A stretch of 64,000 bases of DNA, from NCBI GenBank assembly GCA_964472545.1, contig CAYYNP010000011.1, positions 1 through 64,000 on the forward strand, written 5' to 3'. Each line of letters starts with the position of its first letter. Positions within the stretch are counted from its first letter, which is position 1. This document shows, piece by piece, positions 1-40,234 of this stretch. The notes below the pieces were generated by a model. The model searched no databases and was not told where the DNA came from. It worked only from the letters and a program-made list of their open reading frames with translations. This stretch comes from an uncultured Planctomycetaceae bacterium. GTDB taxonomy: Bacteria; Planctomycetota; Planctomycetia; Pirellulales; Thermoguttaceae. Position numbers and translations under genes: made by a program.

Positions 1-165
1 GGAAAGCTGCCTCGTGGTGGAGTTATCGTGCCTCAAGCAGATACTCGTGAACTCGAAACTGACCGCTACGTTACCATCGCCGCAGCCGGTGGTCAACGAA
101 ATTCCGGGAGCGTGGGGCGGATTTCTGAAGAACGGCCCTAGCGGGGGGTGCGCCGTGAATCCCCG
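1..165. repeat. Copy A of a ~165-nt non-coding element that recurs at 22786..22950 (about 80 percent identical by eye). It runs off the window start and is a possible structured RNA or duplicated 5-prime leader.
   Basis: The first 34 nt are identical to 22786..22819, and there is a second conserved block, cgtggggcggatt(t)ctgaagaacggccct(a/g)gcggggg. Substitutions break any common reading frame. The ORFs at 14..199 and 22801..23013 share only their first 13 aa. Confidence 0.55.
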
Positions 166-725
166 TTTCCCGTGTGTCGCCACGGGTGCAAGCCTGTGAC
201 CGTCATGCTGCCGTCGCGGTGGAGGATGATCTCGCGGGTGGGGGCGGCGGCGAGGTCGTCGGCCGAGTGACGCGGCGTCAGGAGGTGGATCTGCTGGTTT
301 GTGGAACTCGCCAGACCGGCGTCCGCCTGCCGCGAGGCAACGTACCGGCCGGCGATCAGCACGTCGACCAGCGGGAGGATGCGCGGGCCCAGCGGGAGCT
401 CCTGGACTTCGTCGAGCGTGTAGCCGGTGAAGACCAAGCGGCCCAACGGTGCAGAATCGAGCCTCTCGAGCAGATCGAGCAGGGCGTCCGGTTGTTGGAA
501 GGGCTCGCCGCCGGAGACGCTGACGCCATCGATCTTGGGCCCGAGCGAGATGATCTCGCCGGCAAGCTGCTCGGTGTCGAACTCGACGCCGCCGCGCGGG
601 TCGTGCGTGGCCGGATTGAAACAGCCGGGGCAGCCGAGCGCGCAGCCTTGAAACCAGACGACCGCGCGGAGGCCCGGGCCGTTGGAACGGCTAGCCGGTT
701 CGAAGGCGTGCAGGCGGAACTTCAT
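138..725 (-). CDS. Radical SAM activating enzyme of the NrdG family (anaerobic ribonucleoside-triphosphate reductase activating protein family), 196 aa from the ATG at 725.
   Basis: SNGPGLRAVVWFQGCALGCPGCFNP matches the NrdG N-terminal NGPGxR..GC...CPGC(Y/F)N 4Fe-4S motif. VSVSGGEPF, LVFTGYTLDEV and STNQQIHLL match NrdG blocks. The ATG overlaps the upstream stop as ATGA. The upstream 157 codons of the track ORF overlap the FGE-like gene and are not used. Confidence 0.8.
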   Translation of the reverse strand: MKFRLHAFEPASRSNGPGLRAVVWFQGCALGCPGCFNPATHDPRGGVEFDTEQLAGEIISLGPKIDGVSVSGGEPFQQPDALLDLLERLDSAPLGRLVFTGYTLDEVQELPLGPRILPLVDVLIAGRYVASRQADAGLASSTNQQIHLLTPRHSADDLAAAPTREIILHRDGSMTVTGLHPWRHTGNGDSRRTPR

Positions 726-1507
726 GATTCGCGACGCCCTGGCGATTCGCCCGGCGATATCGCCACGCGAAACCCGGCCCCGTAGGCGTGGTACGTTGGC
801 CTGATCCGGTAGCGGCTCGTGCAGCGGAACGAGGGCGGGTGTCGGTTGTCGAACGAGCCGCCGCGTACGACACGGGCCTTCCCGCGTTCCGGAGAATCGA
901 AATCGCCGCCCCCGTATCGGGCCGAGACGTCGGGATGGTACCAGTCGGCACACCATTCCCACACATTGCCGCTCATCTGGTAATGCCCCCACCGGCTGCA
1001 GCCCTTGGCGAAGCTCCATACGCCGCACGTCGTCGCGCGGCGTTTGTTCTTGGCGTTGCGGCATCGGCTCCAGCGCCAGGTGTTGCCCCAAGGGTACTTG
1101 CGGCCGTCGAGGCCTCTGGCCGCTTTCTCCCACTCCAATTCGCTGGGCAATCGCAACCCGGCCCATTGGCAATAGGCCGCCGCGCCGTGCCAACTCACCT
1201 GCACCACGGGATGGTCGGCCTTGTCGCCGTCGGCCCGGTAGACGCCGTCCCTCTCATACACGAAGCAGTGTTGGTCCAAGAGGACCCACTGCTGAAGGGC
1301 ATCGTCGTTCGGGGCGGACTGTGTGAGAAACCGGGCATACTGTTCGTTCGTCACCGGGTGGATCGCCATGTAGAACGCCGCCGACTCCATCTCAAACCTC
1401 TCGTCGCCGGCCAGGAATCGCCCGCCGGGGACCAACAGCAAGAGGCTCCCGTCGGGGGCGTTCTCGATCAGCCAAGGCAGTGACGTCGTTGTCTGCGTGT
1501 TGGCCAT
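722..1507 (-). CDS. FGE-sulfatase (SUMF1/DUF323) domain protein, predicted catalytically inactive.
   Basis: [26 protein letters not shown] and GFRVA motifs of the FGE fold. The canonical Cys pair after GGSF (human FGE ..SFMCHRSYCY..) is replaced by FDNRHPPSF. The stop overlaps the start of the radical SAM gene. Confidence 0.85.
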   Translation of the reverse strand: MANTQTTTSLPWLIENAPDGSLLLLVPGGRFLAGDERFEMESAAFYMAIHPVTNEQYARFLTQSAPNDDALQQWVLLDQHCFVYERDGVYRADGDKADHPVVQVSWHGAAAYCQWAGLRLPSELEWEKAARGLDGRKYPWGNTWRWSRCRNAKNKRRATTCGVWSFAKGCSRWGHYQMSGNVWEWCADWYHPDVSARYGGGDFDSPERGKARVVRGGSFDNRHPPSFRCTSRYRIRPTYHAYGAGFRVAISPGESPGRRES

Positions 1508-1519
1508 GCGTGATCTGTC

Positions 1520-3091
1520 CTACGCATCGTCGGACTCGGCTGAGGCGAACCGCCATCTACCGCGGGCGTGACGTCGCAAGGCGGTGATCTTGTGCTCCAT
1601 CGACTCCGCCAACGGTACGGTCGTGGTAATAGATTGCTCGAGATGGCGGTCTTCCAGGGTGGTTGTTTCCCCTTCCGCGAAAGCTCCGTAGAGCGCCGAG
1701 ATCACGGCCTGCTCGAGCTCGGCCCCGGAGAAGCCGTCGCTCGCCCGCGCGTGCCGAGTGAGGTCGAAGGCGCGATGATCGCGCTGGTGTTTCTCTAGGT
1801 GGATGGCCAGGATATCGGTCCGCTCTTGAGGGCCCGGCAAATCGATGAAGAAGATCTCGTCGAAGCGGCCCTTGCGCAGCAACTCCGGCGGCAGGCCCTC
1901 GACGTCGTTGGCCGTGGCGATGGTGAAGACCTGCCTGGTGCTCTCCTCCATCCAGGTCAACAGCGTGCCGAACACGCGGGTCGACGTGCCCGAGTCGCCG
2001 CCGGGGCCGCGGCTTCCGGCCAGGCCCTTTTCGATCTCGTCGATCCACAGCACGCACGGGGCAACGGCTTCGGCCATCTTCAGCGCCCGACGGATGTTCT
2101 CTTCCGATTGACCCACCAAGGAACCGAAGACTCGGCCCAGGTCGAACCGCAGCAGCGGCATCTTCCACTCGGCCGATACGGCCTTGGCCGAGAGGCTCTT
2201 GCCGCAGCCGGGCACGCCGACCAGCAGGAGTCCTTTGGGGCTGGGCAGGCCGAACTGACGGGCAGCCTTGCTGAACGCTTTGCCCCGTTGGTGCAGCCAG
2301 GTCTTCAGATGCCCCAGCCCGCCGATGCTGCCGAACCGCTCCGGCGTCGAGTAGAACTCCAGGATGCCCGACTTGCGGATGATCTGCTCCTTCTCGGCCA
2401 ACAGCAGGTCGACGTCGGCGGCCGCCAGGCGGTGCCGGGTGACGACCACCTTGGCCAAGGCGTTTTCCGCTTCGGCCCGGGTCAACCCCAGCAGCGACTT
2501 GACGAGCTTCTCCCTCCCGTCGTCGGTCAGATCGATTTCGATCCGGCGATTGTCGCCGAGCTGTTCCACGGTGGCGTCGAGCACGCCGGCCAAGTCCCGT
2601 TCGTCGGGCATCGGCAAGTCGAGGACCGTGACGTCCTTCTCCAATTCCGTGGGCAGTTTCAACACGGGCGAGAGCAAGACGACCGTCTTTCGGCTGGCCT
2701 TGAACGGCGCGACCAGATCGCGAAGCTGGCGGACGGTCAACGCCGCGTTGCAGGCGCGCTCGTCGAGGAAGAAGTGAAAGTCCTCCAGCAGGAACACCCC
2801 CGGCTCCGCAAAGTCGAGCAGGTACGGCAAGATCCGTTGCGGGTCGGCCGTCTGGCGGTCGATCGCCTTGCCGTCGGCCGTGCAGAGCCCACGGGAGATC
2901 GACCAGACGTACGGCTGCCGCCCGCCGATCTCGCCGTCGGCCAGTGCTTCGGCCACCAGTTCGACCGCACGGTCTTCCTCGGGGGTGATCAGATAGAGCA
3001 GCGGGTAGCCGGCGCGAAGGTAGGTTCGCAGTTGCTCCTTGAACGGGCAGGGCGCCCGGGCGTCGTCCGATTGGCGGGGCTGACTCATCAT
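1520..3091 (-). CDS. AAA+ ATPase (paralog 1), 523 aa.
   Basis: Walker [17 protein letters not shown], Walker [11 protein letters not shown], then a sensor region. A ~270-aa N-terminal domain is paralogous to that of the ORF at 4537..6087. Confidence 0.85.
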
Positions 3092-3282
3092 TCGTACTCG
3101 CGATCGTACTCGGATTCCGATTCGGTCTGGTGGTACTCGGGCTTGAGTTCGCGCTCGTCGAGCGGGGTGCCCAGACGCTGTTCCAACTCGCGCGTGAACT
3201 CGACACAGTCTGGCCCGACGGCCCCCAGGACCTCGACCTTCTGGGTGCCGTTCTTGCGGAGGGTGATCTTGATCTTTCTCAT
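3088..3282 (-). CDS. DUF2997-like small protein, 64 aa.
   Basis: MRKIKITLRKNGTQKVEVLGAVGPDCVEFTRELEQRLG...ELKPEY fits the remembered DUF2997 pattern (I..kdG.v.veV.G..G..C...T..lE..LG....e.tpEy). The stop overlaps the AAA+ start as ATGA. Confidence 0.6.
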   Translation of the reverse strand: MRKIKITLRKNGTQKVEVLGAVGPDCVEFTRELEQRLGTPLDERELKPEYHQTESESEYDREYE

Positions 3283-3312
3283 CGCTGATGGTCCTTCTCG
3301 GGTTTCGCGTCG

Positions 3313-3723
3313 TCAGCCGCGTTCGGATAAGACGATCACCGTGTCGCCGTTTTCGAGCGTCTCTTCCGATTCGACGACCAGATCCTGCTCGCGAATCTGA
3401 TCCTGGATCACTTGGTAAGCGTAGCAGCGTTTCAACTCCGCAAGCAGCGCGCGGACTCGTTGACTTTGGCGATCGTACTCCGAAACGACCGCCTCGTATT
3501 CACCGGACGGCAGCCGCCGGAATCCCAGGTCGTTGCTCGCGTTGCCGACGAACTCCCTGCGGACGATCACCTCGGCGGTCTCCGGCCGGACGTCTCCCTC
3601 GAAGCCGTAGAGGTGCTGCGGCTTGTCGTACTGCTCCACGTGCGTGAAGCCCATCTCGTCAAGCGCCTGCAAGAGGAGCGGCAATTCACGGATCTGTGTG
3701 CGGACGAGCGTGTAATGGGACAT
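3313..3723 (-). CDS. DUF1257 (Ycf35-like) protein, 137 aa from the ATG at 3723.
   Basis: MSHYTLVRTQIRELPLLLQALDEMGFT resembles the Ycf35/DUF1257 N-terminus MSHFT.IKTQIRD...L..LGF. The upstream part of the 205-aa track ORF overlaps the FGE-like gene at 3764..4540 in another frame and is excluded. Confidence 0.65.
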   Translation of the reverse strand: MSHYTLVRTQIRELPLLLQALDEMGFTHVEQYDKPQHLYGFEGDVRPETAEVIVRREFVGNASNDLGFRRLPSGEYEAVVSEYDRQSQRVRALLAELKRCYAYQVIQDQIREQDLVVESEETLENGDTVIVLSERG

Positions 3724-3763
3724 GGCAAAGTCTCCTTGGCCCGCTGGGGCAGGTTGGTTGGAT

Positions 3764-4540
3764 TCACTCGTCGAGGCTTCTGGCCACCCGAAACCCGAAG
3801 CATCCGCGGTAGCCCGGCAGGATGCCGTGACGGCAAAGCGCGCAGCGGAAGAAGCCGGGAAAGTCGAGATAGAACGACCCGCCGCGCAACACGCGTCGTG
3901 TCGCCGCGTCACCGGAGCGTGCCGTTGCACGCTTCTCGTACAAGTCGGCGCACCACTCCCACACGTTGCCGCTCATCTGATAGTGCCCCCAAGGGCCACA
4001 CCCGTCGGGATACTCCCACACGCTGCACGTGGTCTGCTCACCCTTGTTTTTGTCGTTGCGGCATTTGCTCGGGTCCCACTCGTAGCCCCAGGGATACTCT
4101 CGGCCGTCGACGCCCCGGGCCGCCTTTTCCCACTCGAGCTCCGTCGGCAGCCGCAGCCCGGCCCAACGGCAATAGGCGTTGGCGTCGTCCCAGTCGACGC
4201 AGACGACCGGATGGTCCCGTCGGTCGGCCGGAAACCGCCTACCCCGCCAGACAGGGTCGCCATAATCGCTCCTGTCCGGCGGGCGGTGCCGGGTGGCGTC
4301 GACGAATCGCTTGTACTGCGCGTTGGTGACCGGCGTGATCCCCAGGTAGTACGGCGGCAACACGACCTCGGCCTTCTGCTGGCCGGCCAGGAACTTCCCG
4401 GCCGGAACCAACAGCAAGATACTCCCGTCGGCGTCGTTCGTCAGGAGCATCTGCCCGAACTGTTCGACGGACCGCTGGGGCATCAAATCCCACGGGCTAA
4501 GCGTGGGCCACCCGGCATAGGTTTGCAGCGACTGCTTCAC
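3764..4540 (-). CDS. FGE-sulfatase domain protein (paralog 2), predicted inactive. Start is assigned to the GTG at 4540.
   Basis: C-terminal 258 aa of the 560-aa track [41 protein letters not shown] and RVLRGGSF are present. Its N-terminus aligns with that of the gene at 6084..6932. GTGA overlaps the AAA+ stop. An alternative ATG at 4483 is possible. After GGSF the sequence is [13 protein letters not shown], so there is no canonical Cys pair. Confidence 0.8.
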
Positions 4541-6087
4541 GTTTCGATGATCCTCCCGGTCGGGCTGCGGCGGTCTTGTTCCTCTCTCGACGCCGGAGCC
4601 GCGCGGCCTTCGGTCTTCCAACGGCGCAGGCTTTCGATCTCCTCGGTGTGCGATTCGCTGATCGGCACGGTCTCCTGCAAGGCGGCCAGCAGGTCGCGTT
4701 GCTCGATCTCGCGATTTTCGTCGGCGAAGGCGGTGAATTGGGCCTCGCGCACCGCCCGCTCGATCTCGCGGCCCACCATGCCGCGGCTCTTGGCGACCAA
4801 TTCGTCGAGGTCGAACTCCCGTTCCGGGAATGCGGTGCCGGCGCCGCGCAGATGGATCAGGAAGATCGCCCGGCGTTCGTCGGCGTGGGGCAGGTCGAGA
4901 AAGAACGTGCGATCGAAACGGCCCATCAACTCCGGCGGCAGGGCGGTCACGTCGTTGGCCGTGGCCACCACGAAAACCGGCGTGCGGTGCTCCTGCATCC
5001 AGGTCAGAAACGTGCCGAAGACCCGCGTGGCGGCCCCGCTGTTGAGCGTGTTGGCCCCGGTGCCGGCGAAGGCCTTCTCGATCTCGTCGATCCAGAGGAT
5101 GCACGGGCTGACCGTTTCGGCGAGCATGATCGCCTTGCGCATGTTCTGTTCGCTTTCGCCCAACAGCGAGCCGAAGAGCGTGCCCACGTCCAATCGCAGA
5201 AGCGGCAACTTCCACAACCCGGAGAGCATCTTGGCCGAGAGGCTCTTGCCGGTGCCGGGGATGCCGATCAGGGCCACGCCGCGCGGGAAGGGCAACCCGG
5301 CCTCGCGGGCCTCGCCGCCGAATCCGGCCTCGCGCTTCTTCAGCCAGACCTTCATCAGGTCCAATCCGCCCACGTCCGCCTCGCCCGCGTCGGCCGGCCA
5401 GAACTCCAACGCCCCGCTCTGCCGGATCACTTCCCGCTTGGCCCAAGTGACCAACTCGATACCCCGCTCATCGAAGACGTGATGATGGGCCCAAACCCGC
5501 GAGAAGGCAAGCCGGGCCTGGTTGGTCGTCAGCCCCAGGGCCGATTGGACGAGCTTGTCTTGTACTTGGGGTTCGGGCAGCTTCGAACGGTCGAGCTTGG
5601 CGGTCACCTCCTCGAACAACCGCCGCAGCTCCTTCCGCCCGGGCAAGGGCACGTGCAACACGACCACGTCGTCGCGCAACTCCAGCGGCAGGTCGTGCTC
5701 CGGCGGCAGCGGCGGCGTGGTGAAGATCAGGTACTGACTCTGCGCACGCAGCCGCCGGGCCATGTTGCGCAGCTTACGGGTGATGATCGAACGCCGCTGA
5801 TTCCACGAGTGATGGAAGTCCTTCAGCACCAGCACGCAGCCGGGGGGCATCTTCTCGGCCACGTGCCGCAACACCGTCTCGGTGGTGCAGTCCTTCGGCG
5901 GAAACGGCTCCCGCCCGGCACGATGGTCGCGGAAGCCGTCGGCGACGTCCCAACTGGTGATCCCCAGTTCGCGGGCCGATTCGATCTCCCCCAACGTCCG
6001 CAGCACCCGGTCTTCCTCGTAAGTGACCAGATGGAGCATCGGCACGTGGGCCGCAAGCAGGGCGTTAAGTTCTTCTTTGAGGTTCAT
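4537..6087 (-). CDS. AAA+ ATPase (paralog 2), 516 aa.
   Basis: Walker [16 protein letters not shown] and Walker [11 protein letters not shown]. The N-terminal domain [15 protein letters not shown] is similar to paralog 1. ATGA overlap with the upstream FGE-like stop. Confidence 0.85.
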
Positions 6088-6932
6088 ATCAGGTCCTGCT
6101 TAGTGGAGCGTCGTCCGCCGTCGACGTGAACCGCCCTGGCTACGCGAAAACCGATCAGCGAGCGGCGATGCGGTGGAGCGTGGTCGCGATGGTCGCCGCG
6201 GAAGAGAGTCGGATTGCCGCGGGCGAACGACCCGCCGCGGACCACGCGAGACGTTCCCTCGTCCGGCGAGGCAAGGTCTCCTCGACGATAACGGTGGTAC
6301 GCCGCAGGGTCGTACCTGTCGGCACACCACTCCCACGCGTTGCCGCTGAGGCCGTAATGTCCCCACGTGCTGCAACCGGCCGGATAATCCCAGACGTCGC
6401 ACACCGCCTCGCCGTCGCGGTTCTGTTGGTTGCGGCATCGGGCGGCGTCCCATTGGTTTCCCCAAGGGTACTCTCGACCGTCGACGCCGCGGGCGGCCTT
6501 CTCCCACTCGAGTTCCGTCGGCAGCCGCAACTTGGCCCAACGGCAATACGCGACCGCGTCGGTCCAACCGACTTGCATCACCGGATGCCGGGCCTGCTGC
6601 TGCGGCAGATGCGTCCCCCGCCACGCCGCGTCGCCGACGTCGGCCCGGTTCGGACGGCGATGTCCGGTGGCCACGACGAATCGCTGGTACTGCAAGTTCG
6701 TCACCGGCGTGATCCCGAGATAATACGGCGGAAGTTCGACCTCAAACCTCTCCTTGCCCGCCAGAAACTTCCCGCCGGGCACCAGCACCAGCGTACTGCG
6801 GTCGATCGGGTTGACATAGAGCATCTGCTGATATCGCCGCGCAAAGTCGCCCGAAAGCACGTCCCAGGTCGTCAGCGTGGGCCAGTCGGTGTTCGTGGTT
6901 GGCAGTGTGCTCATCGGTTCGAGTTCGTTCAA
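6084..6932 (-). CDS. FGE-sulfatase domain protein (paralog 3), predicted inactive.
   Basis: [50 protein letters not shown] and IGFRVARA are present. There are no Cys residues at all after GGSF (ARGNPTLFRGDHRDH). Confidence 0.85.
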   Translation of the reverse strand: MNELEPMSTLPTTNTDWPTLTTWDVLSGDFARRYQQMLYVNPIDRSTLVLVPGGKFLAGKERFEVELPPYYLGITPVTNLQYQRFVVATGHRRPNRADVGDAAWRGTHLPQQQARHPVMQVGWTDAVAYCRWAKLRLPTELEWEKAARGVDGREYPWGNQWDAARCRNQQNRDGEAVCDVWDYPAGCSTWGHYGLSGNAWEWCADRYDPAAYHRYRRGDLASPDEGTSRVVRGGSFARGNPTLFRGDHRDHAPPHRRSLIGFRVARAVHVDGGRRSTKQDLI

Positions 6933-6945
6933 GTGCGGCCTTTCG

Positions 6946-8601
6946 TCACAGGCGAACGACCGGGTGTTCCTCCAGCAACGTCTTTCCGGAGAGATTATCC
7001 AACACCGTAACCAACAGCCGACGGTGGCCGTCGACCTGAAACGAGCAGAGGAAACGCTGGGCGTCTCGCGGCAGACTGACGGGCGGGTCGGCGACGATGA
7101 ACGTGGGATTCTCGCGATTCAAGCAGAAATGACCGAACTCCGTGACCACGTGGCTGTCGTCGTTGAGCACGCCGTCGGCGTCGACCAGATCGATCGTGGC
7201 ACGGCGGGGCTTCATCCGCGAGACCTCGAAGATCTTCAGACCGATCCGCGTCATTCCGTCATAGCTGCCGCGGGCCCAAAGCCGGACCGCGTCGGGCCCG
7301 GTGGGGTATTCGGTGCCGGTGGAGAACATCGGCTTGAACTCGTAGTCGCGCCGCTGGGCGTTGTAGCTCTCGATGGCGTAGTCGTGCTGCAAGATCGGTA
7401 CCACAACGCCGCGGCAGGCACCGCGAACCACGGCGTCGAACGGGTTGCCCAGCACGGCACGGCCGTCGAACGCGTCGATCAGCAACCGCCGCACGCAGGG
7501 CACCAGGCTGGTGCCGCCGGTGACCAGCACCTTGACCACGTCGTCGCGCCGCACGCCCGCTTTGATCGCCGCGTTCTCCAACGCCCGATCGATCGTTTGC
7601 CGGACCTGTTCGAGAAAGCCCGCCTTCGCCACCAAACAACCGAAGCAGGCCTCGTCCGACTGCGGGTGATCGCCCACAGAGCCTTGGCCACACTGCGGGC
7701 AGTTGCGTCGATACGTGGTTCGCATCAGCCGCCCGTGCGCGCCGGCGCCCTCGGACACGGAAACGTCGGCCTGCGTCTTGGCCGGATCGGAAAGCGTGAC
7801 TTTGGCCTCTTCCACCTGCCGCAGCACGACGGCCTGCAACCGGCGCCGTTGGCCGTCGTCGATGGCGTGCCGCCGGCAGAAATCGTCGGCCAGATAGCGG
7901 TCGAGGTCCATGCCGCCGAGGTCTTGGCCGGCCCGGCCGAGTTGAATCGCCTTGCGGTCCGACGCGGCCGCGAAATCAACGCGGACCACGGCCACGTCGA
8001 GCGATCCGCAGCCAAAGTCGAAGACCACGAAGCGATCTTCCTTGCGGGCGGCGCCGTGAAATCCCAGGATGCAAGCCGTCGGCTCGTCGAGCAGCCGCAG
8101 CCGGCGGATCCCCACCGCCTCGGCCACCCGGCGGATCCAGTCCTCGAAGTTCTCGAACGCCTCGGTCGGGGCCGTGAACGTGAACTCGTCGTCTTCCAGC
8201 GAAATCCGATCCGAAGCGTAGCGGAGCAGTAGGGTGAGGAAGTCCTCGCCCGCCTGCGCCGGGCTCTTGTGGCCCTGGGCAGTCTTCTTTCGCCGCGTGG
8301 CGCCGTGGGCAATCCCGCGTTTCATCCAGCGGAACGTGTCGCGATGTTCGGCCAGGCCGCGGGCGAGGACCTGATTGCCGATGAGCGTCTCGGTCTGCGA
8401 ATAGTGGATTAACGAGGGCGTTACCGGAACCAAGAGCCTCCGATCCGCTTGCTGCCGGTTCGGGATGAACTCCATCGCGGCCATGATGCCGGGAATCTCG
8501 ATCGTCTCGACACGCTCGGTCGTCTCGTCGAAGCGTGCCAGGACGGTGTTGGCGGTGCCGAAGTCGACGGCGACTTTACTCACGTTGCGGCTCCTCTGCA
8601 T
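6946..8601 (-). CDS. Hsp70-family ATPase (DnaK-like nucleotide-binding domain plus a beta-SBD-like C-terminus) with a 4-Cys insert, ~552 aa.
   Basis: VAVDFGTANTVLA (phosphate-1), LLDEPTACILGF (IINEPTAAA-like), VVFDFGCGSLDVAVV (DLGGGTFDVS-like) and VLVTGGTSLVPCVRRLL (adenosine motif). The C-terminal TIDLVDADGVLN resembles Hsp70 FDIDANGILN. CPQC..(14)..CFGC is inserted in the NBD. The ATG at 8601 overlaps the upstream gene, and a GTG at 8583 is an alternative start. Confidence 0.75.
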   Translation of the reverse strand: MQRSRNVSKVAVDFGTANTVLARFDETTERVETIEIPGIMAAMEFIPNRQQADRRLLVPVTPSLIHYSQTETLIGNQVLARGLAEHRDTFRWMKRGIAHGATRRKKTAQGHKSPAQAGEDFLTLLLRYASDRISLEDDEFTFTAPTEAFENFEDWIRRVAEAVGIRRLRLLDEPTACILGFHGAARKEDRFVVFDFGCGSLDVAVVRVDFAAASDRKAIQLGRAGQDLGGMDLDRYLADDFCRRHAIDDGQRRRLQAVVLRQVEEAKVTLSDPAKTQADVSVSEGAGAHGRLMRTTYRRNCPQCGQGSVGDHPQSDEACFGCLVAKAGFLEQVRQTIDRALENAAIKAGVRRDDVVKVLVTGGTSLVPCVRRLLIDAFDGRAVLGNPFDAVVRGACRGVVVPILQHDYAIESYNAQRRDYEFKPMFSTGTEYPTGPDAVRLWARGSYDGMTRIGLKIFEVSRMKPRRATIDLVDADGVLNDDSHVVTEFGHFCLNRENPTFIVADPPVSLPRDAQRFLCSFQVDGHRRLLVTVLDNLSGKTLLEEHPVVRL

Positions 8602-10114
8602 CGACGAATTCGGCTGTAAACTCGCCGGTCTCGACGACCATCTCCTCGAAGATCCCCGCCGTGACGCGATGGGATATGATCGTATGCAGCACTTTGCGGG
8701 CCGCCCCGAGTTTGCCTCTGAAGGCCTCGGCCGGGGCGTTGGCCAGCGTGTCCAGGTCGGCCGGCGTGGCGCGGCCCGGCCAGAGTTCCAACACACCGGA
8801 AGCCGTGGCCAACTCGGTGACCCAGTAGTTGGCGTCCTCGGTCGTGTCGGCCGTCAGTTCCAGCGACAGCCCGGCGATCTGGCCGGCGAGGCGGACCATC
8901 CAGTGCGGGCTTTGCCGCACCGCTTCGGCGGCCGCCGAGCCCGGCCGCGACTTGGCGGCCAGCGCGCCGACGATCACCACGCCCTGCGGCGGCGCCGCCG
9001 CGGCGAGTTGCTGCAACAACCCGGACTCGCTCACGGTGGTCAATTCACTCTGCCGGCCTCGGGCAAGCAACTGCTCGAACAGCGGGCTTTCGGCCTTTGG
9101 CCGCTTCGTCGTGGGAGTGATCTGACCGTCGCTATCAGCCAGAATCCGTCGATACACTTCACGCTCGTCGCCAGACTCCGGCTCCCAGGCCGACCCGCGC
9201 ATCGCCGGAAACGCCGCGAAGCTGTATTTCAAAGGCAACTCCAGACAGGCACGAAACAGCCGCGGCCAGTCCTCGTGGCTAATCCAGGAGTCGACGGCCA
9301 GCTTGATTTCCGACTCGCTGCACTCCGACAGCGGCCGGCTCTTGGTGCCGAAGAACGCGGCGCAACGGCGATCGCCCGAGCGGACCACGTCCATCACGTG
9401 GGCTCGAATCGTCGCGTCGGCCCGCTCGTACTCGAGTTTCAGATTCTGGAAGGCGTAGTCTTCCTCGAAATACTCGTCCAACTGCCGCGTGACGAAGAGG
9501 AACAGGCAAAGCCGTTCGGGGTCTTCGGGGCGGTGGCCGGCTTGCAGGCAGAGTTCCGCGGCCGGGCCAGCAGGCTCTCGAATGGCCTCGGTGCAGAGCG
9601 CTTCGCGTTGGGGCCCGACGGGAACGTCTCGGAGCGTTGCGTCGGCACCCAAGCGGACGACTTCGTCAGCATCGTCTAGCAGCGAGACGAAAAGCGGAAC
9701 CATGTCGGGCCGGTCGACGACCACCTGCCGGCCGGATTTCAGCGCGGAAAGGGCCTTCACCTTCAACGGGGCGGCGGCCACGTAACGCTGTTCGGCAAGG
9801 ATCGTCCCCAGCCGCTCCTGGCGCCCCTCGGCCCACAAGCCGCACAGCGCGTCGATCGCCGGTTGGGCCTCCAGATTGGCCAGCGCCCGGCGTGCTCCGG
9901 CGGCGATTTCCTCGTATGGCGAGGAGGATGCCTCGGCCAACAACGCCACGGCAGACGCGTCGTTACGGTTCTCGTGCAACGCTTCGAGCGCCGTGCGTCG
10001 CCACCGTGGCCCCAAGAACGGAATCGACGACCGCAGTCTCCGCCGCCACCTATTCAAGAGCCTTCGCGTGATCATCCGCGGTGCACCCGTTGGCTGTCGA
10101 CGATCGCCCTGCAA
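8576..10114 (-). CDS. Hypothetical alpha-helical protein (HEAT/ARM-like repeats plausible), first gene of the operon.
   Basis: 512-aa ORF with helical-repeat-like segments (AVALLAEASSSPYEEIAAGARRALANL..AIDALCGLW). Likely real start at the M at 10075 (MITRRLLNRW). There is 300 nt of non-coding sequence upstream. Confidence 0.5.
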   Translation of the reverse strand: MQGDRRQPTGAPRMITRRLLNRWRRRLRSSIPFLGPRWRRTALEALHENRNDASAVALLAEASSSPYEEIAAGARRALANLEAQPAIDALCGLWAEGRQERLGTILAEQRYVAAAPLKVKALSALKSGRQVVVDRPDMVPLFVSLLDDADEVVRLGADATLRDVPVGPQREALCTEAIREPAGPAAELCLQAGHRPEDPERLCLFLFVTRQLDEYFEEDYAFQNLKLEYERADATIRAHVMDVVRSGDRRCAAFFGTKSRPLSECSESEIKLAVDSWISHEDWPRLFRACLELPLKYSFAAFPAMRGSAWEPESGDEREVYRRILADSDGQITPTTKRPKAESPLFEQLLARGRQSELTTVSESGLLQQLAAAAPPQGVVIVGALAAKSRPGSAAAEAVRQSPHWMVRLAGQIAGLSLELTADTTEDANYWVTELATASGVLELWPGRATPADLDTLANAPAEAFRGKLGAARKVLHTIISHRVTAGIFEEMVVETGEFTAEFVDAEEPQRE

Positions 10115-11184: not shown

Positions 11185-12342
11185 TCAACGACGGCGGCGT
11201 TTGTGTCGAGCGTAGGCCAACGTCAGCGGCATCGCCATAGCGGCCAGCAGCGCAAAGCTGGAAGGTTCGGGGATCACGGCCTGCCAGGCTTCGGGGTGCC
11301 CCAACGGATTCACTCCGTGTCCGACGATCACCGTGCCGTCGGCCGAGATTCCCGTTGCCGACTGCAAATCCCAGCCGTCCAGTACCAGTCCGTAGTCGTT
11401 GGTCAACACGTCTTCGAGGTCGCGCATGCCGTGGGTCGCATCCCAGAGGAACGCTCCGCCGCCCGAACTGTACCCGACGATCTTGGAGCCATCGCCCGAG
11501 ACGCTCAGGGCTCGGCTCTGGTCTTCGCGTTCCGGGTTCGTGCCCAGCATTCCCAGTCCAACCATGCCCCCTTCAGGCGTCCAACGGAACGCTTCCATGT
11601 CGAAGAATGAACGGGCCCATCCTACGACTACCGAGCCGTCGGCAGTGACGGCCAGCGCCGTGCTGCGACCTAGATTGTCGGGCCGCAAGGTGCCCAAGCC
11701 AATCATCCCCTCGCCGACGGTCCAGTGAAAAGCCTCCACACCTCCATACTGCTCGGTGTGGGAGATGCTCCCTCCCACGATCACCGAGCCGTCGGCGGAG
11801 ACACCGCTGGCCTCGCTCTTGAACTCGTCGCCGGGCAAGTCGCCCAGACCGACCATCCCACTCTCGGCAGTCCAGCGGAACGCCTCCGTACCGTTGGCAG
11901 ACGGAGCGCTCCCTACGACCACGGAGCCGTCGGCAGAGACACCCCGGGCAAAGGTATTAAAGCGGTTGCCGCCGGGCAGGTTACCCAGGCCAATCGTTAC
12001 GTCGGCAGCCGTCCAACGAAACGCCTCGGGGAGCAGGAAGAAGCTGTTTCCCACGATCACCGAGCCGTCGGCCGACACGGCAAGAGCGTAGGTGGTGGTC
12101 TGGCCCACCGGCAGATCGTCCAGGCTCGTCATCCCACCGGCCTCGGTCCAGCGAAACGCCTGGCTGCCCCAATCAGACGTGCTCGATCCCACGACCACTC
12201 GGCCGTCCGCCGACACGGCATCAGCCGCGCTCGAGAATTCGCCGCCCGGCAAGTCCGCCAGGCCCCGGAAACTGGCTGCCCGGACGGGCGTCACGCCGAC
12301 CAGCAGCGCCAGTATCGCTACAGTCAAGATTGACAGTTTCAT
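11185..12342 (-). CDS. HAF-repeat extracellular protein with PEP-CTERM anchor.
   Basis: Signal peptide. At least seven repeats of the form (A/E)AFRWT...GM..LG.LPGG..S.A.GVSADGSV(V/I)VG, which is the HAF-repeat pattern. C-terminal VIPEPSSFALLAAMAMPLTLAYARHKRRRR. The ATG overlaps the upstream gene stop (ATGA). Confidence 0.75.
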   Translation of the reverse strand: MKLSILTVAILALLVGVTPVRAASFRGLADLPGGEFSSAADAVSADGRVVVGSSTSDWGSQAFRWTEAGGMTSLDDLPVGQTTTYALAVSADGSVIVGNSFFLLPEAFRWTAADVTIGLGNLPGGNRFNTFARGVSADGSVVVGSAPSANGTEAFRWTAESGMVGLGDLPGDEFKSEASGVSADGSVIVGGSISHTEQYGGVEAFHWTVGEGMIGLGTLRPDNLGRSTALAVTADGSVVVGWARSFFDMEAFRWTPEGGMVGLGMLGTNPEREDQSRALSVSGDGSKIVGYSSGGGAFLWDATHGMRDLEDVLTNDYGLVLDGWDLQSATGISADGTVIVGHGVNPLGHPEAWQAVIPEPSSFALLAAMAMPLTLAYARHKRRRR

Positions 12343-13394
12343 GCCACTCTCCTTTCACGGATCCAGACAAACGTCAGCAGTATCATCACGGCGGCCATCA
12401 GCAACGCCAGGCCGGACGGCTCGGGGATCACGGCCCGCCAGGCTTCCCACTGGCCGGACGGGTTCAACCCGGAACCGACGATCACCGTGCCGTCGTCCGA
12501 GACGCTGCCCGCGCCGGACAGCTCCCACCCCGTCAAATCGAGCCCGAAATCATTGGTCAGCACCTCCTTCAGATCGCGCATTCCGTGCGTTTGGTGCCAG
12601 ATAAACGCCCGCGTGTCGCCCGCCCCGCTATGCCCCACGATCACCGAGCCGTCGCCGGAGACGTCCCGCGCCCGGCTCTCACTATCGCCGGGCAAGGCGC
12701 CGAGACCGACGACGCCGGTCTCGTCGGTCCAGCGAAAGGCGATTCCGGGATCGGCAGGGCCGGGCGGCCCCGTGTAGGCTAGCCCCACGACGGTCGACCC
12801 ATCGGCGGAAATGGCTTGCGGCTCGACGGTCCAGCCAGGCGCGGTTACGAGGCTGACCCATCCGGTCCGGGCAGTCCAGCGTCCGGGCCATCCGACGATT
12901 GCCGAACCGTCGGCCGAGACGTCGTAGCACGAGTAGCCCATGTCGACCATGCCGGTCTCGGCGGTCCACCGGAAATCACTTCCCACGATCACCGATCCGT
13001 CGGTGGAGGCTCCCAAAGCGCGGCTGTCTTCGAGAGGTTCTGGTCCGTCGTCCAGTACGAGAGTCCCTTCGGCCGCCGTCCAGCGAGCCGCATTCCATTC
13101 GTACATCCCTTCCACTTCACCCACCAGCACGCGCCCGTCGCCGGAGACGGCGTTGACAAAGATCTCCGGCCTCCACTGCATCCCGGTTTCGGCCGTCCAG
13201 CGAAACGAGTGCATCGCGATCGAGTCGGAACGGCTGCTGAGGCCGACGATCACCGAGCCGTCGGCCGAAATGCCGCGAGGATAACTCGAATGTCCGTCGT
13301 CCAAGAAGCCCAGGCCCCGGAAACTGGCGGCCGGTGCCTGCCCCGCACCGAGCAGGTTCACCAACATCGCCATACTCAGAATTGATCGCTTCAT
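12339..13394 (-). CDS. HAF-repeat extracellular protein with PEP-CTERM anchor (tandem paralog).
   Basis: Signal peptide MKRSILSMAMLVNLLGAGQAPAASF. Repeats FRWTAETGM / AFRWTDETGVVGLGALPGD..DVSGDGSVIVG. C-terminal VIPEPSGLALLMAAVMILLTFVWIRERRVA. The start is taken at the ATG at 13394, preceding the signal peptide. Confidence 0.75.
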   Translation of the reverse strand: MKRSILSMAMLVNLLGAGQAPAASFRGLGFLDDGHSSYPRGISADGSVIVGLSSRSDSIAMHSFRWTAETGMQWRPEIFVNAVSGDGRVLVGEVEGMYEWNAARWTAAEGTLVLDDGPEPLEDSRALGASTDGSVIVGSDFRWTAETGMVDMGYSCYDVSADGSAIVGWPGRWTARTGWVSLVTAPGWTVEPQAISADGSTVVGLAYTGPPGPADPGIAFRWTDETGVVGLGALPGDSESRARDVSGDGSVIVGHSGAGDTRAFIWHQTHGMRDLKEVLTNDFGLDLTGWELSGAGSVSDDGTVIVGSGLNPSGQWEAWRAVIPEPSGLALLMAAVMILLTFVWIRERRVA

Positions 13395-13606
13395 ATCGCT
13401 CCTCCTCTCACGGTTCCGATGTGATTGGGAACACACAGCCGGCTCGAAACTAGATCGCACGCGCGTAAACGGTAGACAATCCGGCCGGTCCGGCGGTGCC
13501 TTCGCCGAACCCGCACTGCAAGAACACGGGTATCCGGCGACCGTGCCAAGTTGCCGTTGACGTCCGATTGATGAGTCGACGCTGCGTTTAGAGCCTCACG
13601 ACCGCC

Positions 13607-13647: not shown

Positions 13648-13705
13648 ATGTGTCAAAGAAGACTCCGGGGCTCGTATCTCTGACCTCGCGAACTAGTCTC
13701 TTGCT

Positions 13706-13778
13706 GCCGGTCACGATTGCCGGTCACGATTGCCGGTCACGATTGCCGGTCACGATTGCCGGTCACGATTGCCGGTCA
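13706..13778. repeat. Tandem 13-bp repeat, gccggtcacgatt, 5.6 copies.
   Basis: Perfect copies at 13706, 13719, 13732, 13745 and 13758, plus a partial copy. The period of 13 is non-coding. The array abuts the stop codon of the kinase gene and lies ~300 nt upstream of the HAF-repeat gene. Confidence 0.9.
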
Positions 13779-16700
13779 GTCAGGTTGCTCATCCTCTTCT
13801 CTTTGTGTCGTCGCCGTCGCGCCCAACTCCCTAGCGGCCTCGTCTCGGAAGCGGCGGAGTTCTTCATCGTCGGGCCGATGCTCGTTCATCCACCGCACGG
13901 CCTTGTCGTACCAGCGGCGGGCCTCACGATCGTTGTGCTGCTTTGCATGGGCCATCGCCAGAAAGAACCACCCCGGGCCGTTGGAGCCGTAGAAGTCGAC
14001 GGCGTGATAGTCGAAGTCGCCGGCTCGCTCCAACGCCTCTTGGGCTTTGGCGTACTCGCCCACACGGTACCAGGCCGCCCCGAAGATCTTCCAGGCGGCT
14101 CCCGAATCGGGTACTTGTGTGGTCAGTTCCTCGGCCAACTCGACCGCTCGGGGGCCGTCCCGCAACGCAGGATACCGACACGTGGCCAGAAACCATGCCG
14201 CACGAAGCCGAGCTTCTAGAGAGCGGGTGCCGATGTTGCGGGCCCTGTTGGCGTCGGCCAAAGCGGCCTGCATCTCGTTCAGTTCGACCAGGACTTCTGC
14301 CCGGCAGTGATAGGTTTCAACGGAGTTCTCATGCAAACTGATCGCCTTGTCGAAGTCGTTGCGGGCTCGCGCAGCGTCGCCCTCGTATCCCCTGGCGACA
14401 TAGATCCTCCCGCGACTGGAATATGCCCAGGGGTTCTCGGCAGAGGATATCGCTACGTTGAGTTCGTCAAGGGCCAAATCGAACCTGTGCTGCTTGCCGT
14501 AGCCGATTCCCAGGCCCACGCGGCACGAAGACCGATGCGGGGACAAGGCGACTGCTTTCTCGAGGTCCTCGACGGCCCTATCGAGATCGCAGCCCCTGCA
14601 GAAGGCGAGTCCTCGCTGGAAGTAGGCACAGGAGAGTTCCGGATCCCGTCGAATCGCCTCGTCGAAGTCGGCAATGGCCTGCTCGAATCGACCTGCCTTG
14701 ATCTGGCTGACACCTCGGCCGACGTAGCTGAGGACGTACGTCGGATCGAGCCGGATCGCTTCGCTGAACGCGGCTACTGCTCGGTCAAGATCGTCGCTCT
14801 GCTCGTGTACCTTGCCTCGCCAGTAATACGCTAGCGTCCTCTTTGGGTCAACCCGGATTGCCTCGGACAGATCGGCCAACGCTCTGTCCGGCCTTCCCAA
14901 CTTGAAGCAGGCTCGTCCTCGATTCACGTAGTTCGTCGCCAGGTTTCGGATCGCCACGCCGGGGGAGAGACTCGGGGCGTCGGCATCCAGGTGAATTTCT
15001 ATTGCTTGGCTGTAGTCGGCAATGGCCTTGTCGATCTCACCTCTTCGCTCGTGGGCCAGACCGCGCTGGTTGCAGGCGTAGCTGCTTGCCGGGTTCAGTC
15101 TGATCGCTTCGGTGAAGTCGGCGATCGCCCGGTCATAGTCGCGTTTTTCCAGGTAGGCATTCCCCCGGTCCCAGTAGGCCTCCGCGTAGACCGGGGTCAG
15201 TCGCAGGGCTTCGCCGTAGTCGGAAAGAGCCTCTTCGAGTCGACCTTGCCTGACGTAAAGGTCTCCGCGACGGTCACGAGCCGCGGCTAACTTTTTCTGG
15301 TAATGACGGATCTCTGCGTCCAGCCCGTCCAAGCCGTCCTTGGTAGCCATTGGGTCGAGATCATCCCGTTCATCCCTGACGTGGTCCAGCCCACGGCGCG
15401 AGGACGCAGACCCCACGGAGCCGCCCTCGGCGACCCCGGACAGTTCCAAGACGCGGTCGTACGTGCGTGTTGCATCCTCGAACTTCCCCTGGCTTCGCAG
15501 CACGTCGTCCAGGTAGTAGTAACAGCGGGCCAGCAGCAGATTGTACCGATCGGGATCTTCGGCCGCGAGCTTCTCGTAGATGGCAATCGCCGCACGCAAC
15601 GACCGTTCGGCCGCTTCGTGCCTGCCCAACCTTGCACATCCCCAGCCGCGCTGGTATTGCATCGAAGCCAGGCGGGAACGATGCCGGGAACTGCCGCGGA
15701 CTTCATCGGGCAGCCTGGCGTCGAGTTCCGTCGCGTAGTCCACGAGTTGTCCGACTTCCGTCAGGCCGTTTCGGCGAGCCAGACCCTGGATCGCCTCTTC
15801 CATGTGGTCCAGCAGACTATCGACCGTGCGATCCGCCCTCTTGCGCTGTGCCGCCTCCGCCTCGTAGGCGCCGGCGATTAGCAACGTGCTGACGGACATC
15901 GCCACGACCGCCATTACCAATACCGCGATGGCCGACCAAACGGCCGGCCGATGTCGTCGGGACCACTTGGCGACCCTTGCGGCCAGCCGCGGCCGGCGAG
16001 CTCGGATCGGCTTGTCTTCGACAAACCGCCGCAGGTCGTCGGCCAACTCTGCGGCCGTGGCGTAACGGGCCTGTGGCTCTTTGGCGATGGCCTTCAGGAC
16101 GATCGTCTCCAGGTCCTTTGGGACTGCTCCGTTAAGTTGCCGCGGGGATGGAGGATCTTCCTCGATAATCTGCGACATGATTCGCTGCCGGTCGTCGCTC
16201 GCAAACGCAGGTTGCAACGTCAGCATTTCGCAGAGCGTAATGCCCAGCGAGTAAACGTCCGTGCGGTGATCCAACACACCATGTTTCGCCTGCACCTGCT
16301 CGGGGCTCATGTAGCGAAGCGTACCCAGCAGGTCGCCCGTCATGGTGAGATTCGTGTCGGTCTGTGTCATCGCCAGGCCGAAGTCGGCAATCCACAAGTG
16401 TCCTTCCGCGTCGGTCATCAGGTTCGACGGCTTGATGTCTCGATGCACCACGCCCATTTGATGTGCGTGCTCCAGCGCGCCGGCCGCCTGGATGCCCAGA
16501 TTGGCTACACAGCGGAAGAACTCTACCGTGCGGGTCGAAGCCTCCGTGGAAACGCCCTCTTGCGCCTGGCGCCGAGTCTCGGTCAACGCGGATACCAGAC
16601 CATGGGTCGAAGGAGGAGGTTCCGCAATGGGGGCATCCCCGTTGGCCGGCGACGGCCGAGGCGAATCCGAATCGCCCGCCGGGGAGTCCGGATCGTCAAC

Positions 16701-17285
16701 GCGCCGCAGTTCCTCGATCACCTGGGCCAACGTCTGTCCTTCGACGTATTGCATCGCGTAGAAGTGGACGGCCCGCTCGCAGCCTACCGAATAGACGTGA
16801 ACGATGTTCGGATGATCCAGTGCCGCCGCCGCTTGGGCCTCGTTCTTGAACCGCTGAAGCTGCCGCTGGTCCAACACGGCGGCAAACGGCAGCACCTTCA
16901 GCGCTACCCGCCGTTTCAAGGAGATCTGCTCCGCCTCGTAAACGACCCCCATCCCGCCACGGCCGATTTCCCGAACGATTCGGAAATCTCCCAGCATACC
17001 GCCCACGGGGCCGGCCGCGGTCTGCGTCCTCTCTTCCCCGGCCGTATCGGTTGCTTGTGGACGCCTGCGGAGTCCAATCTTGGGCAGGTCGGTCAAAAAC
17101 TCCAGCGCCGGGATGATTTCCTGTAATTGGTCCGCGCAATCCGGGTGGCTGGCCGCAAAGGCCTGCAAGTCGACCTGATCGCCCGCTTGAAGCCGGCCGA
17201 TGAGTTCGTCCACGATCGAGGCGAGCCTCTGGTCGCCGGTTGCCGCTCTGCTAACTGAGACAGACATCGTCGGGCCCTCGATCAC
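13776..17285 (-). CDS. Ser/Thr protein kinase with a C-terminal TPR-repeat domain and a single TM segment.
   Basis: GxGxxG loop IGRGGMGVVYEA, VALKVL, HRDIKPSNLM, DFGLA and SPEQ kinase subdomains. A TM helix (VWSAIAVLVMAVVAMSVSTLLIAGAY) is followed by more than ten TPR-like repeats. GTG at 17285 overlaps the sigma factor stop, or ATG at 17267. Confidence 0.85.
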   Translation of the reverse strand: MIEGPTMSVSVSRAATGDQRLASIVDELIGRLQAGDQVDLQAFAASHPDCADQLQEIIPALEFLTDLPKIGLRRRPQATDTAGEERTQTAAGPVGGMLGDFRIVREIGRGGMGVVYEAEQISLKRRVALKVLPFAAVLDQRQLQRFKNEAQAAAALDHPNIVHVYSVGCERAVHFYAMQYVEGQTLAQVIEELRRVDDPDSPAGDSDSPRPSPANGDAPIAEPPPSTHGLVSALTETRRQAQEGVSTEASTRTVEFFRCVANLGIQAAGALEHAHQMGVVHRDIKPSNLMTDAEGHLWIADFGLAMTQTDTNLTMTGDLLGTLRYMSPEQVQAKHGVLDHRTDVYSLGITLCEMLTLQPAFASDDRQRIMSQIIEEDPPSPRQLNGAVPKDLETIVLKAIAKEPQARYATAAELADDLRRFVEDKPIRARRPRLAARVAKWSRRHRPAVWSAIAVLVMAVVAMSVSTLLIAGAYEAEAAQRKRADRTVDSLLDHMEEAIQGLARRNGLTEVGQLVDYATELDARLPDEVRGSSRHRSRLASMQYQRGWGCARLGRHEAAERSLRAAIAIYEKLAAEDPDRYNLLLARCYYYLDDVLRSQGKFEDATRTYDRVLELSGVAEGGSVGSASSRRGLDHVRDERDDLDPMATKDGLDGLDAEIRHYQKKLAAARDRRGDLYVRQGRLEEALSDYGEALRLTPVYAEAYWDRGNAYLEKRDYDRAIADFTEAIRLNPASSYACNQRGLAHERRGEIDKAIADYSQAIEIHLDADAPSLSPGVAIRNLATNYVNRGRACFKLGRPDRALADLSEAIRVDPKRTLAYYWRGKVHEQSDDLDRAVAAFSEAIRLDPTYVLSYVGRGVSQIKAGRFEQAIADFDEAIRRDPELSCAYFQRGLAFCRGCDLDRAVEDLEKAVALSPHRSSCRVGLGIGYGKQHRFDLALDELNVAISSAENPWAYSSRGRIYVARGYEGDAARARNDFDKAISLHENSVETYHCRAEVLVELNEMQAALADANRARNIGTRSLEARLRAAWFLATCRYPALRDGPRAVELAEELTTQVPDSGAAWKIFGAAWYRVGEYAKAQEALERAGDFDYHAVDFYGSNGPGWFFLAMAHAKQHNDREARRWYDKAVRWMNEHRPDDEELRRFRDEAARELGATATTQREEDEQPD

Positions 17286-20666: not shown

Positions 20667-20757
20667 GATGAACCTCCCACCCGAAAGCACCCTTGGCCAC
20701 GCCGGCCAGTCTACCACACCTCGCGGCCGCGGGAGAAGGACCTTGGGCATGTGGCCG

Positions 20758-22619: not shown

Positions 22620-22785
22620 TGCGTGCCTCCTTTGAACTTACAGGTGACTTCTCGCCTTGGAATGAAGTACAGACGGACAATCTCCGCGCTGGGAAGACTC
22701 AAGGAAACTTGACCCGCAGCCGCACGGATCACTTCGACACGCCAGACGATCATCACGGACAAAACCGCAACGTCAGATTGCGTGT

Positions 22786-22950
22786 CGGGAAAGCTGCCTC
22801 GTGGTGGAGTTATCGTGCCTCGGGCAGATACTCGTGAACTCGGAACGCCTGTTACGCTACCACGGCCGTGGACCGTGGTCAACGAAGTTCTTTGGGCGTG
22901 GGGCGGATTCTCGAAGAACGGCCCTGGCGGGGGGGCTGCTGGCATCCACG
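22786..22950. repeat. Copy B of the ~165-nt element seen at 1..165. It lies ~165 nt upstream of the minus-strand PEP-CTERM gene start at 22619.
   Basis: Alignment by eye. Identical 34-mer ggaaagctgcctcgtggtggagttatcgtgcctc, then blocks with substitutions. A palindrome ccacggccgtgg is present in copy B only. Confidence 0.55.
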
Positions 22951-39815: not shown

Positions 39816-40234
39816 GACTTGCCTCGTGTCTGATTGTCCAATGCCCAAACGGTCGTTGCATGAAGAGATCGTTCAAACGCCGGCGACAGGGCGATTCGCA
39901 AATGAAAATCGACGCGCAGCCGTCCCCCCGCCGGCAAGACCAAAGGAAGACCGCGTCTGGTGACCAAGCGGCCGAAAGAAGGCGGGCCAAGCGAGAGAAA
40001 TCCACCGTGCTTGGATGGTAACTCAGATTGGCCGCCGCGCTGCCTCGGGCGATGTAACCCTTAGAATCACACGTTCATCGCCACTAAGTGTACTAGGATC
40101 GCCCCATGAATGTCAAATTCTGCCTCGAATTCTCCGAGATCGTGGGCGATGCGACAAGAAACGCACGCAGCGCTCCCGTTGGGAATCATCCCCAACGGGT
40201 AGCGCGGCATGTCTCGCGGGCCGGGGCGGGTCGC

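Follow-up and report, generated by a model that had tools for sequence, protein, structure and literature searches.

The locus described here raises the question of why nearly the same non-coding DNA occurs twice in a window of 64,000 nucleotides (the whole stretch that was analysed), once at its left edge (copy A) and once in its interior (copy B), and what this DNA might do for the genes beside it. The answer that we consider probable is that the repeat is a copied cassette of promoter plus leader, placed on the minus strand before two unrelated genes for exported proteins.

The existence and extent of the repeat were established by alignment. In a blastn comparison of the 64-kb window, positions 22788-22934 (plus strand) matched window positions 1-148 with 84.5% identity over 148 nt (E = 8e-42). 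The similarity noticed in the initial annotation was thus real, but the alignment set its limits at 148 and 22934 instead of 165 and 22950; the 34-mer described as identical was recovered exactly (1-34 and 22788-22821). Since homology ended at position 148, copy A shares 11 nt with the minus-strand radical SAM gene (138-725), and not the 28 nt previously given. Neither blastn nor the whole-window self-comparison revealed a third copy in the 64-kb window, and in the latter the copy A/copy B pair was the sole non-coding repeat. Paralogous coding pairs of the window were less alike than the repeat (68-78%, or 85% over one 53-nt stretch). An 18-nt exact match at 49026-49043 lay inside a coding region and was for this reason attributed to chance rather than to a further copy.

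Copy A had been taken to be cut by the window edge, and its continuation was indeed found after leftward extension. Exact-protein look-up with the radical SAM protein as the query gave exact matches on metagenome contigs and retrieved contig L001 (JGI 3300009128), whose first 10,725 nt correspond to window positions 10725-1 at 100% identity and which reaches 1.9 kb further left than the window. With this extension, the full strong repeat comprised window 22934-22669 and L001 10578-10842 (268 nt, 85% identity, E = 2e-80). Past the left end of the window the homology was strong for about 120 nt and weak for about 190 nt, with patchy similarity up to both ATGs and the Shine-Dalgarno sequences aligned, and it stopped at the start codons. 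Copy A accordingly extends beyond the left edge as far as the start codon of a pentapeptide-repeat gene (ATG at L001 10899). The coordinates of the features are collected in Table 1.

Table 1. Positions of the repeat, its predicted parts, the neighbouring genes and the other long leaders (window numbering, except for the contig L005 modules).
Feature	Position	Strand	Remarks
Copy A, visible part	1..148	-	Upstream region (97-148), promoter and first ~61 nt of leader, as predicted
Copy A, predicted -35 TTGACC	91..96	-	Top position-weight site of copy A region
Copy A, 17-nt spacer	74-90	-	Between predicted hexamers
Copy A, predicted -10 TAACGT	68..73	-	TGG before it (extended -10); position-weight scan
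Copy A, GAGGCAGC box	6-13	-	+54 from predicted -10
Copy B, strongly repeated module	22702..22935	-	Upstream region, predicted promoter and leader core
Copy B, region upstream of -35	22883..22935	-	81% identical to copy A
Copy B, predicted -35 TTGACC	22877..22882	-	Position-weight scan
Copy B, 17-nt spacer	22860..22876	-	Most variable segment (65% identity); contains palindrome 22860-22871
Copy B, predicted -10 TAGCGT	22854..22859	-	Extended -10 TG at 22862-22861; position-weight scan
Leader core, 137 nt	22706..22842	-	Seven differences between copies (94.9% identity), transitions only
Predicted hairpin H1	22807..22833	-	Minimum-energy folds of both copies
Copy B, GAGGCAGC box	22793..22800	-	About +54 from predicted -10
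Predicted two-tier hairpin H2	22735..22787	-	Minimum-energy folds of both copies
Predicted hairpin H3	22710..22731	-	Followed by AAGTTTCC (22702-22709); 3' edge of high-identity module
Proximal leader	22620..22705	-	46% identical to copy A, ~76% to L005 ortholog; GGAGG Shine-Dalgarno at 22626-22630
Radical SAM (Fer4_12) gene, 195 aa	138..725	-	Pfam, translation; last 11 nt overlap 5' edge of copy A
PEP-CTERM protein gene after copy B, 276 aa	21789..22619	-	Pfam, ORF coordinates
Three FGE-sulfatase-domain genes 3' of PEP-CTERM gene	20758-21750, 19662-20750, 18369-19640	-	Pfam
Third long leader (X)	39816..40116	-	Before PEP-CTERM gene 37182-39815 (DUF7453 + PEP-CTERM)
Contig L005 module copies	4466-4740, 5392-5733, 6807-7172		One precedes ortholog of copy B gene

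The genes that follow the two copies were clearly different. The pentapeptide-repeat protein encoded after copy A presented a signal-peptide-like N-terminus, and several of its homologues carry PEP-CTERM tags. After copy B, the PEP-CTERM gene and the three FGE-sulfatase-domain genes stand in a row with gaps of 38, 7, and 21 nt, and probably constitute one operon. No BLASTP similarity was found between the pentapeptide-repeat and the PEP-CTERM proteins (best E = 1.6), and the +50 to +150 fragments of the two downstream genes gave no blastn match. The earlier proposal of a leader of paralogous minus-strand genes holds as regards its position in a minus-strand upstream or leader region, but the genes themselves are not paralogous by BLASTP. 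The homology did not continue into paralogous coding sequence, as a segmental gene duplication would demand, but ended at the start codons; as the two downstream coding sequences are unrelated, this explanation was ruled out. The upstream neighbours were also unrelated (the radical SAM gene for copy A and a divergent gamma-glutamyltranspeptidase gene for copy B), and window self-blast gave no other similarity at them. A minus-strand ORF of 852 aa (22966-25524) turned out to be the shadow of this plus-strand gamma-glutamyltranspeptidase gene (23392-25137; GC3 0.82, Pfam E = 7e-142). Since the ORF is spurious, copy B sits in a divergent intergenic region of 772 nt (22620-23391), which is not the context that had been assumed earlier. 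Within the part of the PEP-CTERM gene coding for the signal peptide, at window 22581-22596 (minus strand), we also noticed TGGCACGTTCGTCGCA, a near-consensus sigma-54-like sequence with one mismatch, which is probably a chance match.

The repeated DNA is non-coding, as the initial annotation had maintained from the loss of a shared reading frame: the copies are separated by a 1-nt indel, no frame showed mainly synonymous changes, and the seven differences of the 137-nt core did not favour synonymous changes, whichever of the six frames was read. No called protein matched a chimeric six-frame query compared with 5.8 billion proteins. The frame shift caused by the indel, the absent synonymous bias and the absent protein matches ruled out a coding sequence or small ORF. 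Identity between the copies varied considerably along the element, from 81% in the 53 nt upstream, with 6/6 positions kept in the -35 and 5/6 in the -10 hexamer and 65% identity in the spacer, to 58% around the inferred transcription start and 94.9% in the core, the latter in contrast with 76.6% for upstream region and promoter taken together (Fisher P = 7e-5). With two copies only, this unevenness may stem from a gene-conversion tract of recent origin and not from selection.

When the region was examined by a position-weight scan, the best sigma-70-like site of both copies appeared at the identical aligned position on the minus strand. The predicted promoter consists of TTGACC, a 17-nt spacer, the extended -10 element TGG and then TA[A/G]CGT. 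Sites reaching at least 10 bits were scarce, only nine being present in 128 kb (both strands of the 64-kb window), two of which are the copies. All the other seven lay 78-301 nt upstream of an ATG opening an ORF of high GC3, with a Shine-Dalgarno-like sequence before six of these ATGs; the position of the seven sites before such ATGs indicated that the promoter score is predictive in this genome. A stricter consensus scan called no promoter at the site, since the -10 hexamer fits TATAAT at only three of its six positions. Judging from the position of the hexamers, transcription of copy B would start near 22847, and its leader would measure about 228 nt. The palindrome ccacggccgtgg was present in copy B at 22860-22871, exactly as annotated. 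Its replacement in copy A by a different GC-rich segment had been read as a hint of stem covariation; as the segment falls within the 17-nt spacer between the -35 and the extended -10, a promoter spacer is the simpler reading.

Further copies were sought in sequence collections and in relatives. Genome and metagenome contigs other than the source contigs themselves were scanned by exact patterns: among genome contigs TCTGGCGTGTCGAAGTGATC gave one chance match (Paraburkholderia), and among metagenome contigs ATAACTCCACCACGAGGCAG gave none and GAGTTCACGAGTATCTGC gave seven chance matches, aligned over only about 20 nt. Plasmid and phage collections contained no copy of the repeat. The PEP-CTERM protein after copy B had only four homologues, including a 70%-identical ortholog on contig L005 (NCBI GCA_004196315.1), from a related organism. 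L005 5641-6480 was 80% identical to window 22713-21864, and what the two loci have in common is limited to the coding sequence and ~95 nt of proximal leader; the element is absent from this orthologous locus, which goes partly against the conservation in relatives expected of the element. In its place, the distal part of the L005 leader is a different promoter-leader module of about 250 nt, 82-88% identical before three neighbouring genes (hereafter, L-type leaders), with a clear promoter (TTGACA-17-TGA-TATCCT or TATATT). The 3' boundary of the repeated module was the same in both organisms, directly after a hairpin followed by AAGTT, and homology to the L005 ortholog starts at this H3/AAGTTTCC edge. 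The presence of a different repeated module before the L005 ortholog indicated that swapping of promoter-leader modules recurs in the clade, where such modules seem to be exchanged as units. The best pentapeptide homologue (42% identity) had no element upstream, and two more distant loci showed neither the element nor the GAGGCAGC box considered below.

This box, an 8-mer, links the repeat with other long leaders. Leader X (Table 1) starts with the promoter TTGACA-18-TACACT (40116-40087), continues with the hairpin GGGUUACAUCGCCC and then carries the box as CGAGGCAGCG at 40038-40047, at +41. A second CGAGGCAG just upstream of its -35 (40120-40127) and a third CGAGGCA in its Shine-Dalgarno region were also observed. 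In the window, the 8-mer GAGGCAGC was found five times against 3.3 expected, three of the five in leaders (copy A, copy B and X) at similar offsets from a predicted -10; on L005, the three L-type leaders account for three of its four occurrences, with an offset of +46 in the measured cases. An 8-mer common to the three leader types was obtained in 1.3% of shuffles, before counting the similar position. Against the H3-AAGTTTCC segment of copy B, leader X aligned at 18 of 22 positions, and 13 of 1000 shuffles scored as high; a small hairpin directly before the box is common to X and the L-type leaders. Leader X may belong with the repeat to a loose family, to judge from these matches. Homology between the leaders of the repeat (W) and the L-type leaders was not shown by nhmmer, by shuffled local alignments or by a covariance model of the W pair, which was run on contigs L005, L007, L008, and L001; W and L leaders have only the short box and the H3/AAGTT segment in common.

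A more ambitious interpretation, which we regard as rather doubtful, would unite W, X and the three L-type leaders in a single lineage-specific family of leaders that control the exported PEP-CTERM proteins of this planctomycete-like clade. Its members would follow a plan of sigma-70 promoter, small hairpin, GAGGCAGC box at +41 to +54, long two-tier hairpin, last hairpin and AAGUU; they would act after initiation via the leader and spread between genes as a cassette. If this were true, the family would be a non-proteobacterial counterpart of the PrsR/sigma-54 regulatory region. The box is a real lead, and the common architecture, as read from sequence, unproven.

The well conserved core could itself be a structured cis-regulatory RNA (a riboswitch, a protein-binding leader or an attenuator) whose three hairpins explain its conservation, a reading that we hold to be possible but of low probability. 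The three hairpins are predicted identically in both copies, and the minus strand folded with lower energies than the plus strand (-54/-52 vs. -46/-43 kcal/mol). The four single substitutions falling in predicted stems are all G-U compatible, and on the minus strand only; the core is much better conserved than the promoter; the GAGGCAGC box appears at a similar offset in three otherwise unlike leader types, and the L-type and X leaders also fold into small hairpin, box, long hairpin and last hairpin. However, the folding z-scores were only -1.7 and -1.0, and the four wobble-compatible changes out of four reach P ~ 0.06 with a structure fitted to the same two sequences. Apart from these changes, the two near-identical sequences offer a single double change, located in a long-range pair that is itself doubtful, and an alignment of two sequences cannot show covariation. 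The covariance model built from the copies missed the L-type copies of L005, there was no significant sequence similarity between W and L leaders, and in a manual pairing the substitutions between two L-type copies mostly broke the predicted stems. The Rfam scan of both copies gave nothing credible: nothing reached the gathering threshold, and at E values up to 10 copy A had no match and copy B matched only Esr41 (E = 8.6; 14 bits against a gathering score of 102), which is noise. With weak z-scores, no credible Rfam match and the element absent at the L005 ortholog, the RNA motif suggested at the outset was not established. Two terminator-like hairpins were flagged in copy B and none in the leader of copy A; no intrinsic terminator is thus conserved between the copies, and on this ground a transcription attenuator was rejected.

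It is unlikely that the repeat is a neutral by-product, namely a recent segmental duplication or gene-conversion tract between upstream regions whose core has no function of its own; this would accord with two copies only in one genome, with seven out of seven core differences being transitions, as expected of very recent divergence, with the many recent duplications around PEP-CTERM genes in the clade, and with the orthologous locus lacking the element, but not with an identity profile that is sharply uneven and matches functional landmarks (hexamers kept, spacer free), with the same module boundary after H3/AAGTT in both organisms or with the shared GAGGCAGC box. Another possibility, which we consider very improbable, is a separate gene for a small RNA that spans the ~140 nt between the start and H3 and merely happens to precede the two genes. 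The core has a predicted promoter of its own, and in copy B a hairpin then AAGUUUCCUU was flagged as terminator-like; this U-tract is however poor and lost in copy A, the position-weight scan found no second conserved promoter between H3 and either ATG, and in one L-type copy (e1) the leader runs directly into the Shine-Dalgarno, leaving no space for a separate promoter. From the unrelated contexts of the copies one might suspect a mobile element (a MITE or an insertion sequence), of which the repeat would be a fragment or an end, and from the ATG-initiated ORF that begins inside the core (MIVWRVEVIRA...) a gene for a small protein, both highly improbable: by eye, the alignment boundaries presented neither terminal inverted repeats nor target duplications, and plasmid and phage collections were without match, while the ORF lacks a Shine-Dalgarno, is unequal in length in the two copies and covers only part of the core, and no called ORF among the 5.8 billion proteins matched the six frames. 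Finally, the long stretch of non-coding DNA before a PEP-CTERM gene, an arrangement described by Haft et al. 2006 (PMC1569441), together with AGGCACGATAACTCCA, which loosely resembles a -24/-12 site, could point to a regulatory region of the proteobacterial type, with a PrsR enhancer site and a sigma-54 promoter. This is extremely improbable, as AGGCACGATAACTCCA has three mismatches including the -12 GC, such matches occur at chance level (90 found, 97 expected), TTTACA is on neither strand of either copy and the organism looks planctomycete-like, not proteobacterial. With its best sites at chance level and no TTTACA, the sigma-54/PrsR region was discarded.

According to the cassette reading that we prefer, the copied unit would contain about 55 nt of upstream DNA, the sigma-70-type promoter TTGACC-17-TGG-TA[A/G]CGT and a leader of about 230 nt, the first ~140 nt of it almost identical, ending in a gene-specific proximal part with the Shine-Dalgarno. 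Copy A would drive the pentapeptide-repeat gene left of the window and copy B the PEP-CTERM gene, probably together with the three FGE-sulfatase-domain genes downstream. Recombination or gene conversion from one upstream region to another would have spread the cassette within the genome, so that two unrelated exported-protein genes now share their transcription signals and their leader. We infer that the core is kept because it acts in cis, either at the level of the mRNA or through the DNA immediately after the start. Its role might be that of a stabilising or translation-loading 5' structure, or that of a target for a trans-acting regulator recognising repeated GAGGCA boxes.

Among known systems, the pair most resembles the putative mobile promoters (Matus-Garcia, Nijveen and van Passel 2012, PMC3488235), in which the -150 to -50 fragments of two genes show at least 80% identity in an alignment longer than 50 nt and neither the downstream nor the upstream coding sequences align. 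Here, these fragments aligned over 93 nt with 85% identity (E = 2e-25), and the pair corresponds to that definition (PMC3488235) in every sequence respect, its role as a promoter being predicted from the consensus match. As in putative mobile promoters, highly similar non-coding DNA of the promoter region stands before non-homologous genes with unrelated upstream neighbours. In the survey of PMC3488235, two-member families were the commonest (68% of families), with a mean identity of 92% and a mean length of 66 nt. Unlike them, the repeat extends over 268 nt (against the mean of 66 nt) and its best-conserved part is downstream of the predicted promoter, in the leader.

With regard to PEP-CTERM genes, Haft et al. 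2006 (PMC1569441) reported that the non-coding DNA upstream of them usually exceeds 200 nt, and stated that other, undescribed motifs must exist outside Proteobacteria; in the proteobacterial regulatory region, motif 1 is a 17-mer ending in TTTACA and motif 2 a sigma-54 site (-24 GG/-12 GC) about 71 nt before the start codon. The predicted leader of ~228 nt fits these long upstream regions (PMC1569441), and the locus shares with proteobacterial PEP-CTERM genes the more than 200 nt of non-coding DNA and the use of common DNA before unrelated genes of one genome. It differs from them in having a sigma-70-like promoter, without a sigma-54 -24/-12 site or the TTTACA motif 1, in that the common sequence is mainly predicted leader, and in that one of the genes encodes a pentapeptide-repeat protein, whose C-terminus lies beyond the sequence.

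Comparison can also be made with leader RNAs. The position in a 5' leader, the length of ~140 nt and the multiple hairpins recall the riboswitches and cis-regulatory leader RNAs of Rfam, from which the element differs in having no credible family match, demonstrable covariation, conserved terminator or sequestering helix. Long stabilising 5' leaders are known from abundant mRNAs for envelope proteins, such as the ompA 5' UTR, the leaders of S-layer genes and the STAB-SD of cryIIIA. The likeness to these is one of architecture only: a strong promoter, as predicted here, a long leader with 5' hairpins before genes for exported or surface proteins, and a Shine-Dalgarno-like GAGGCA far upstream of the real ribosome-binding site.

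If the cassette reading is right, the locus would be a clear and unusually long case of promoter-leader reuse, with two unrelated exported-protein genes wired to the same signals; given the replacement cassette of L005, the clade would be exchanging the regulatory modules of its surface-protein genes as units. With the core and the GAGGCAGC box, the repeat would then offer a first concrete candidate for the cis signals of PEP-CTERM genes outside Proteobacteria, the question left by Haft 2006. By itself, the repeat reveals no new mechanism.

Other features of the window were also observed. The minus-strand gene block at 138-8796 contains, besides the small radical SAM (Fer4_12) gene, three FGE-sulfatase-domain genes, two AAA ATPase genes, one or two DUF1257/DUF2997 pairs and an Hsp70-like gene, with paralogous coding sequences 68-74% identical. 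An ECF sigma factor gene of the planctomycete-type PF07638 (17282-17890, minus strand) is directly followed by one for a Ser/Thr kinase of 1169 aa with TPR repeats, the pair spanning 13776-17890; the pairing of an ECF sigma factor with a Ser/Thr kinase-TPR gene is typical of Planctomycetota. The ECF sigma factor domain and the names of homologues point to a member of the Planctomycetota, perhaps of the Phycisphaerae. About six tandem copies of the 13-nt unit TGCCGGTCACGAT (13705-13791) mark the place where this Ser/Thr kinase-TPR gene (minus strand, 13776-17285) meets the DNA upstream of gene 12339-13460, whose 3' end resembles a PEP-CTERM-coding repeat, with no Pfam match for the gene. A second tandem repeat, with a 15-nt unit (GGCCGATGACGATGC), occupies 63836-63925, probably in a coding region running off the window. 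GC-rich palindromic elements with the arm GTGTGCCACTGCTTCGCAGAAGCAGTG occur at window 33260-33336 and 52176-52204 and at L005 12868-12987 (94% identity over 32 nt), and resemble REP-like elements or terminator hairpins; long perfect hairpins were also seen at 25326-25421, 59521-59644, 45347-45425, and 31538-31620. Between a diadenylate-cyclase-like gene (33408-34502) and an unannotated gene of 747 aa (34878-37121), an Acido-Lenti-1 RNA (Rfam RF01687) was detected at window 34700-34745 on the plus strand (50.9 bits, E = 1.5e-8).
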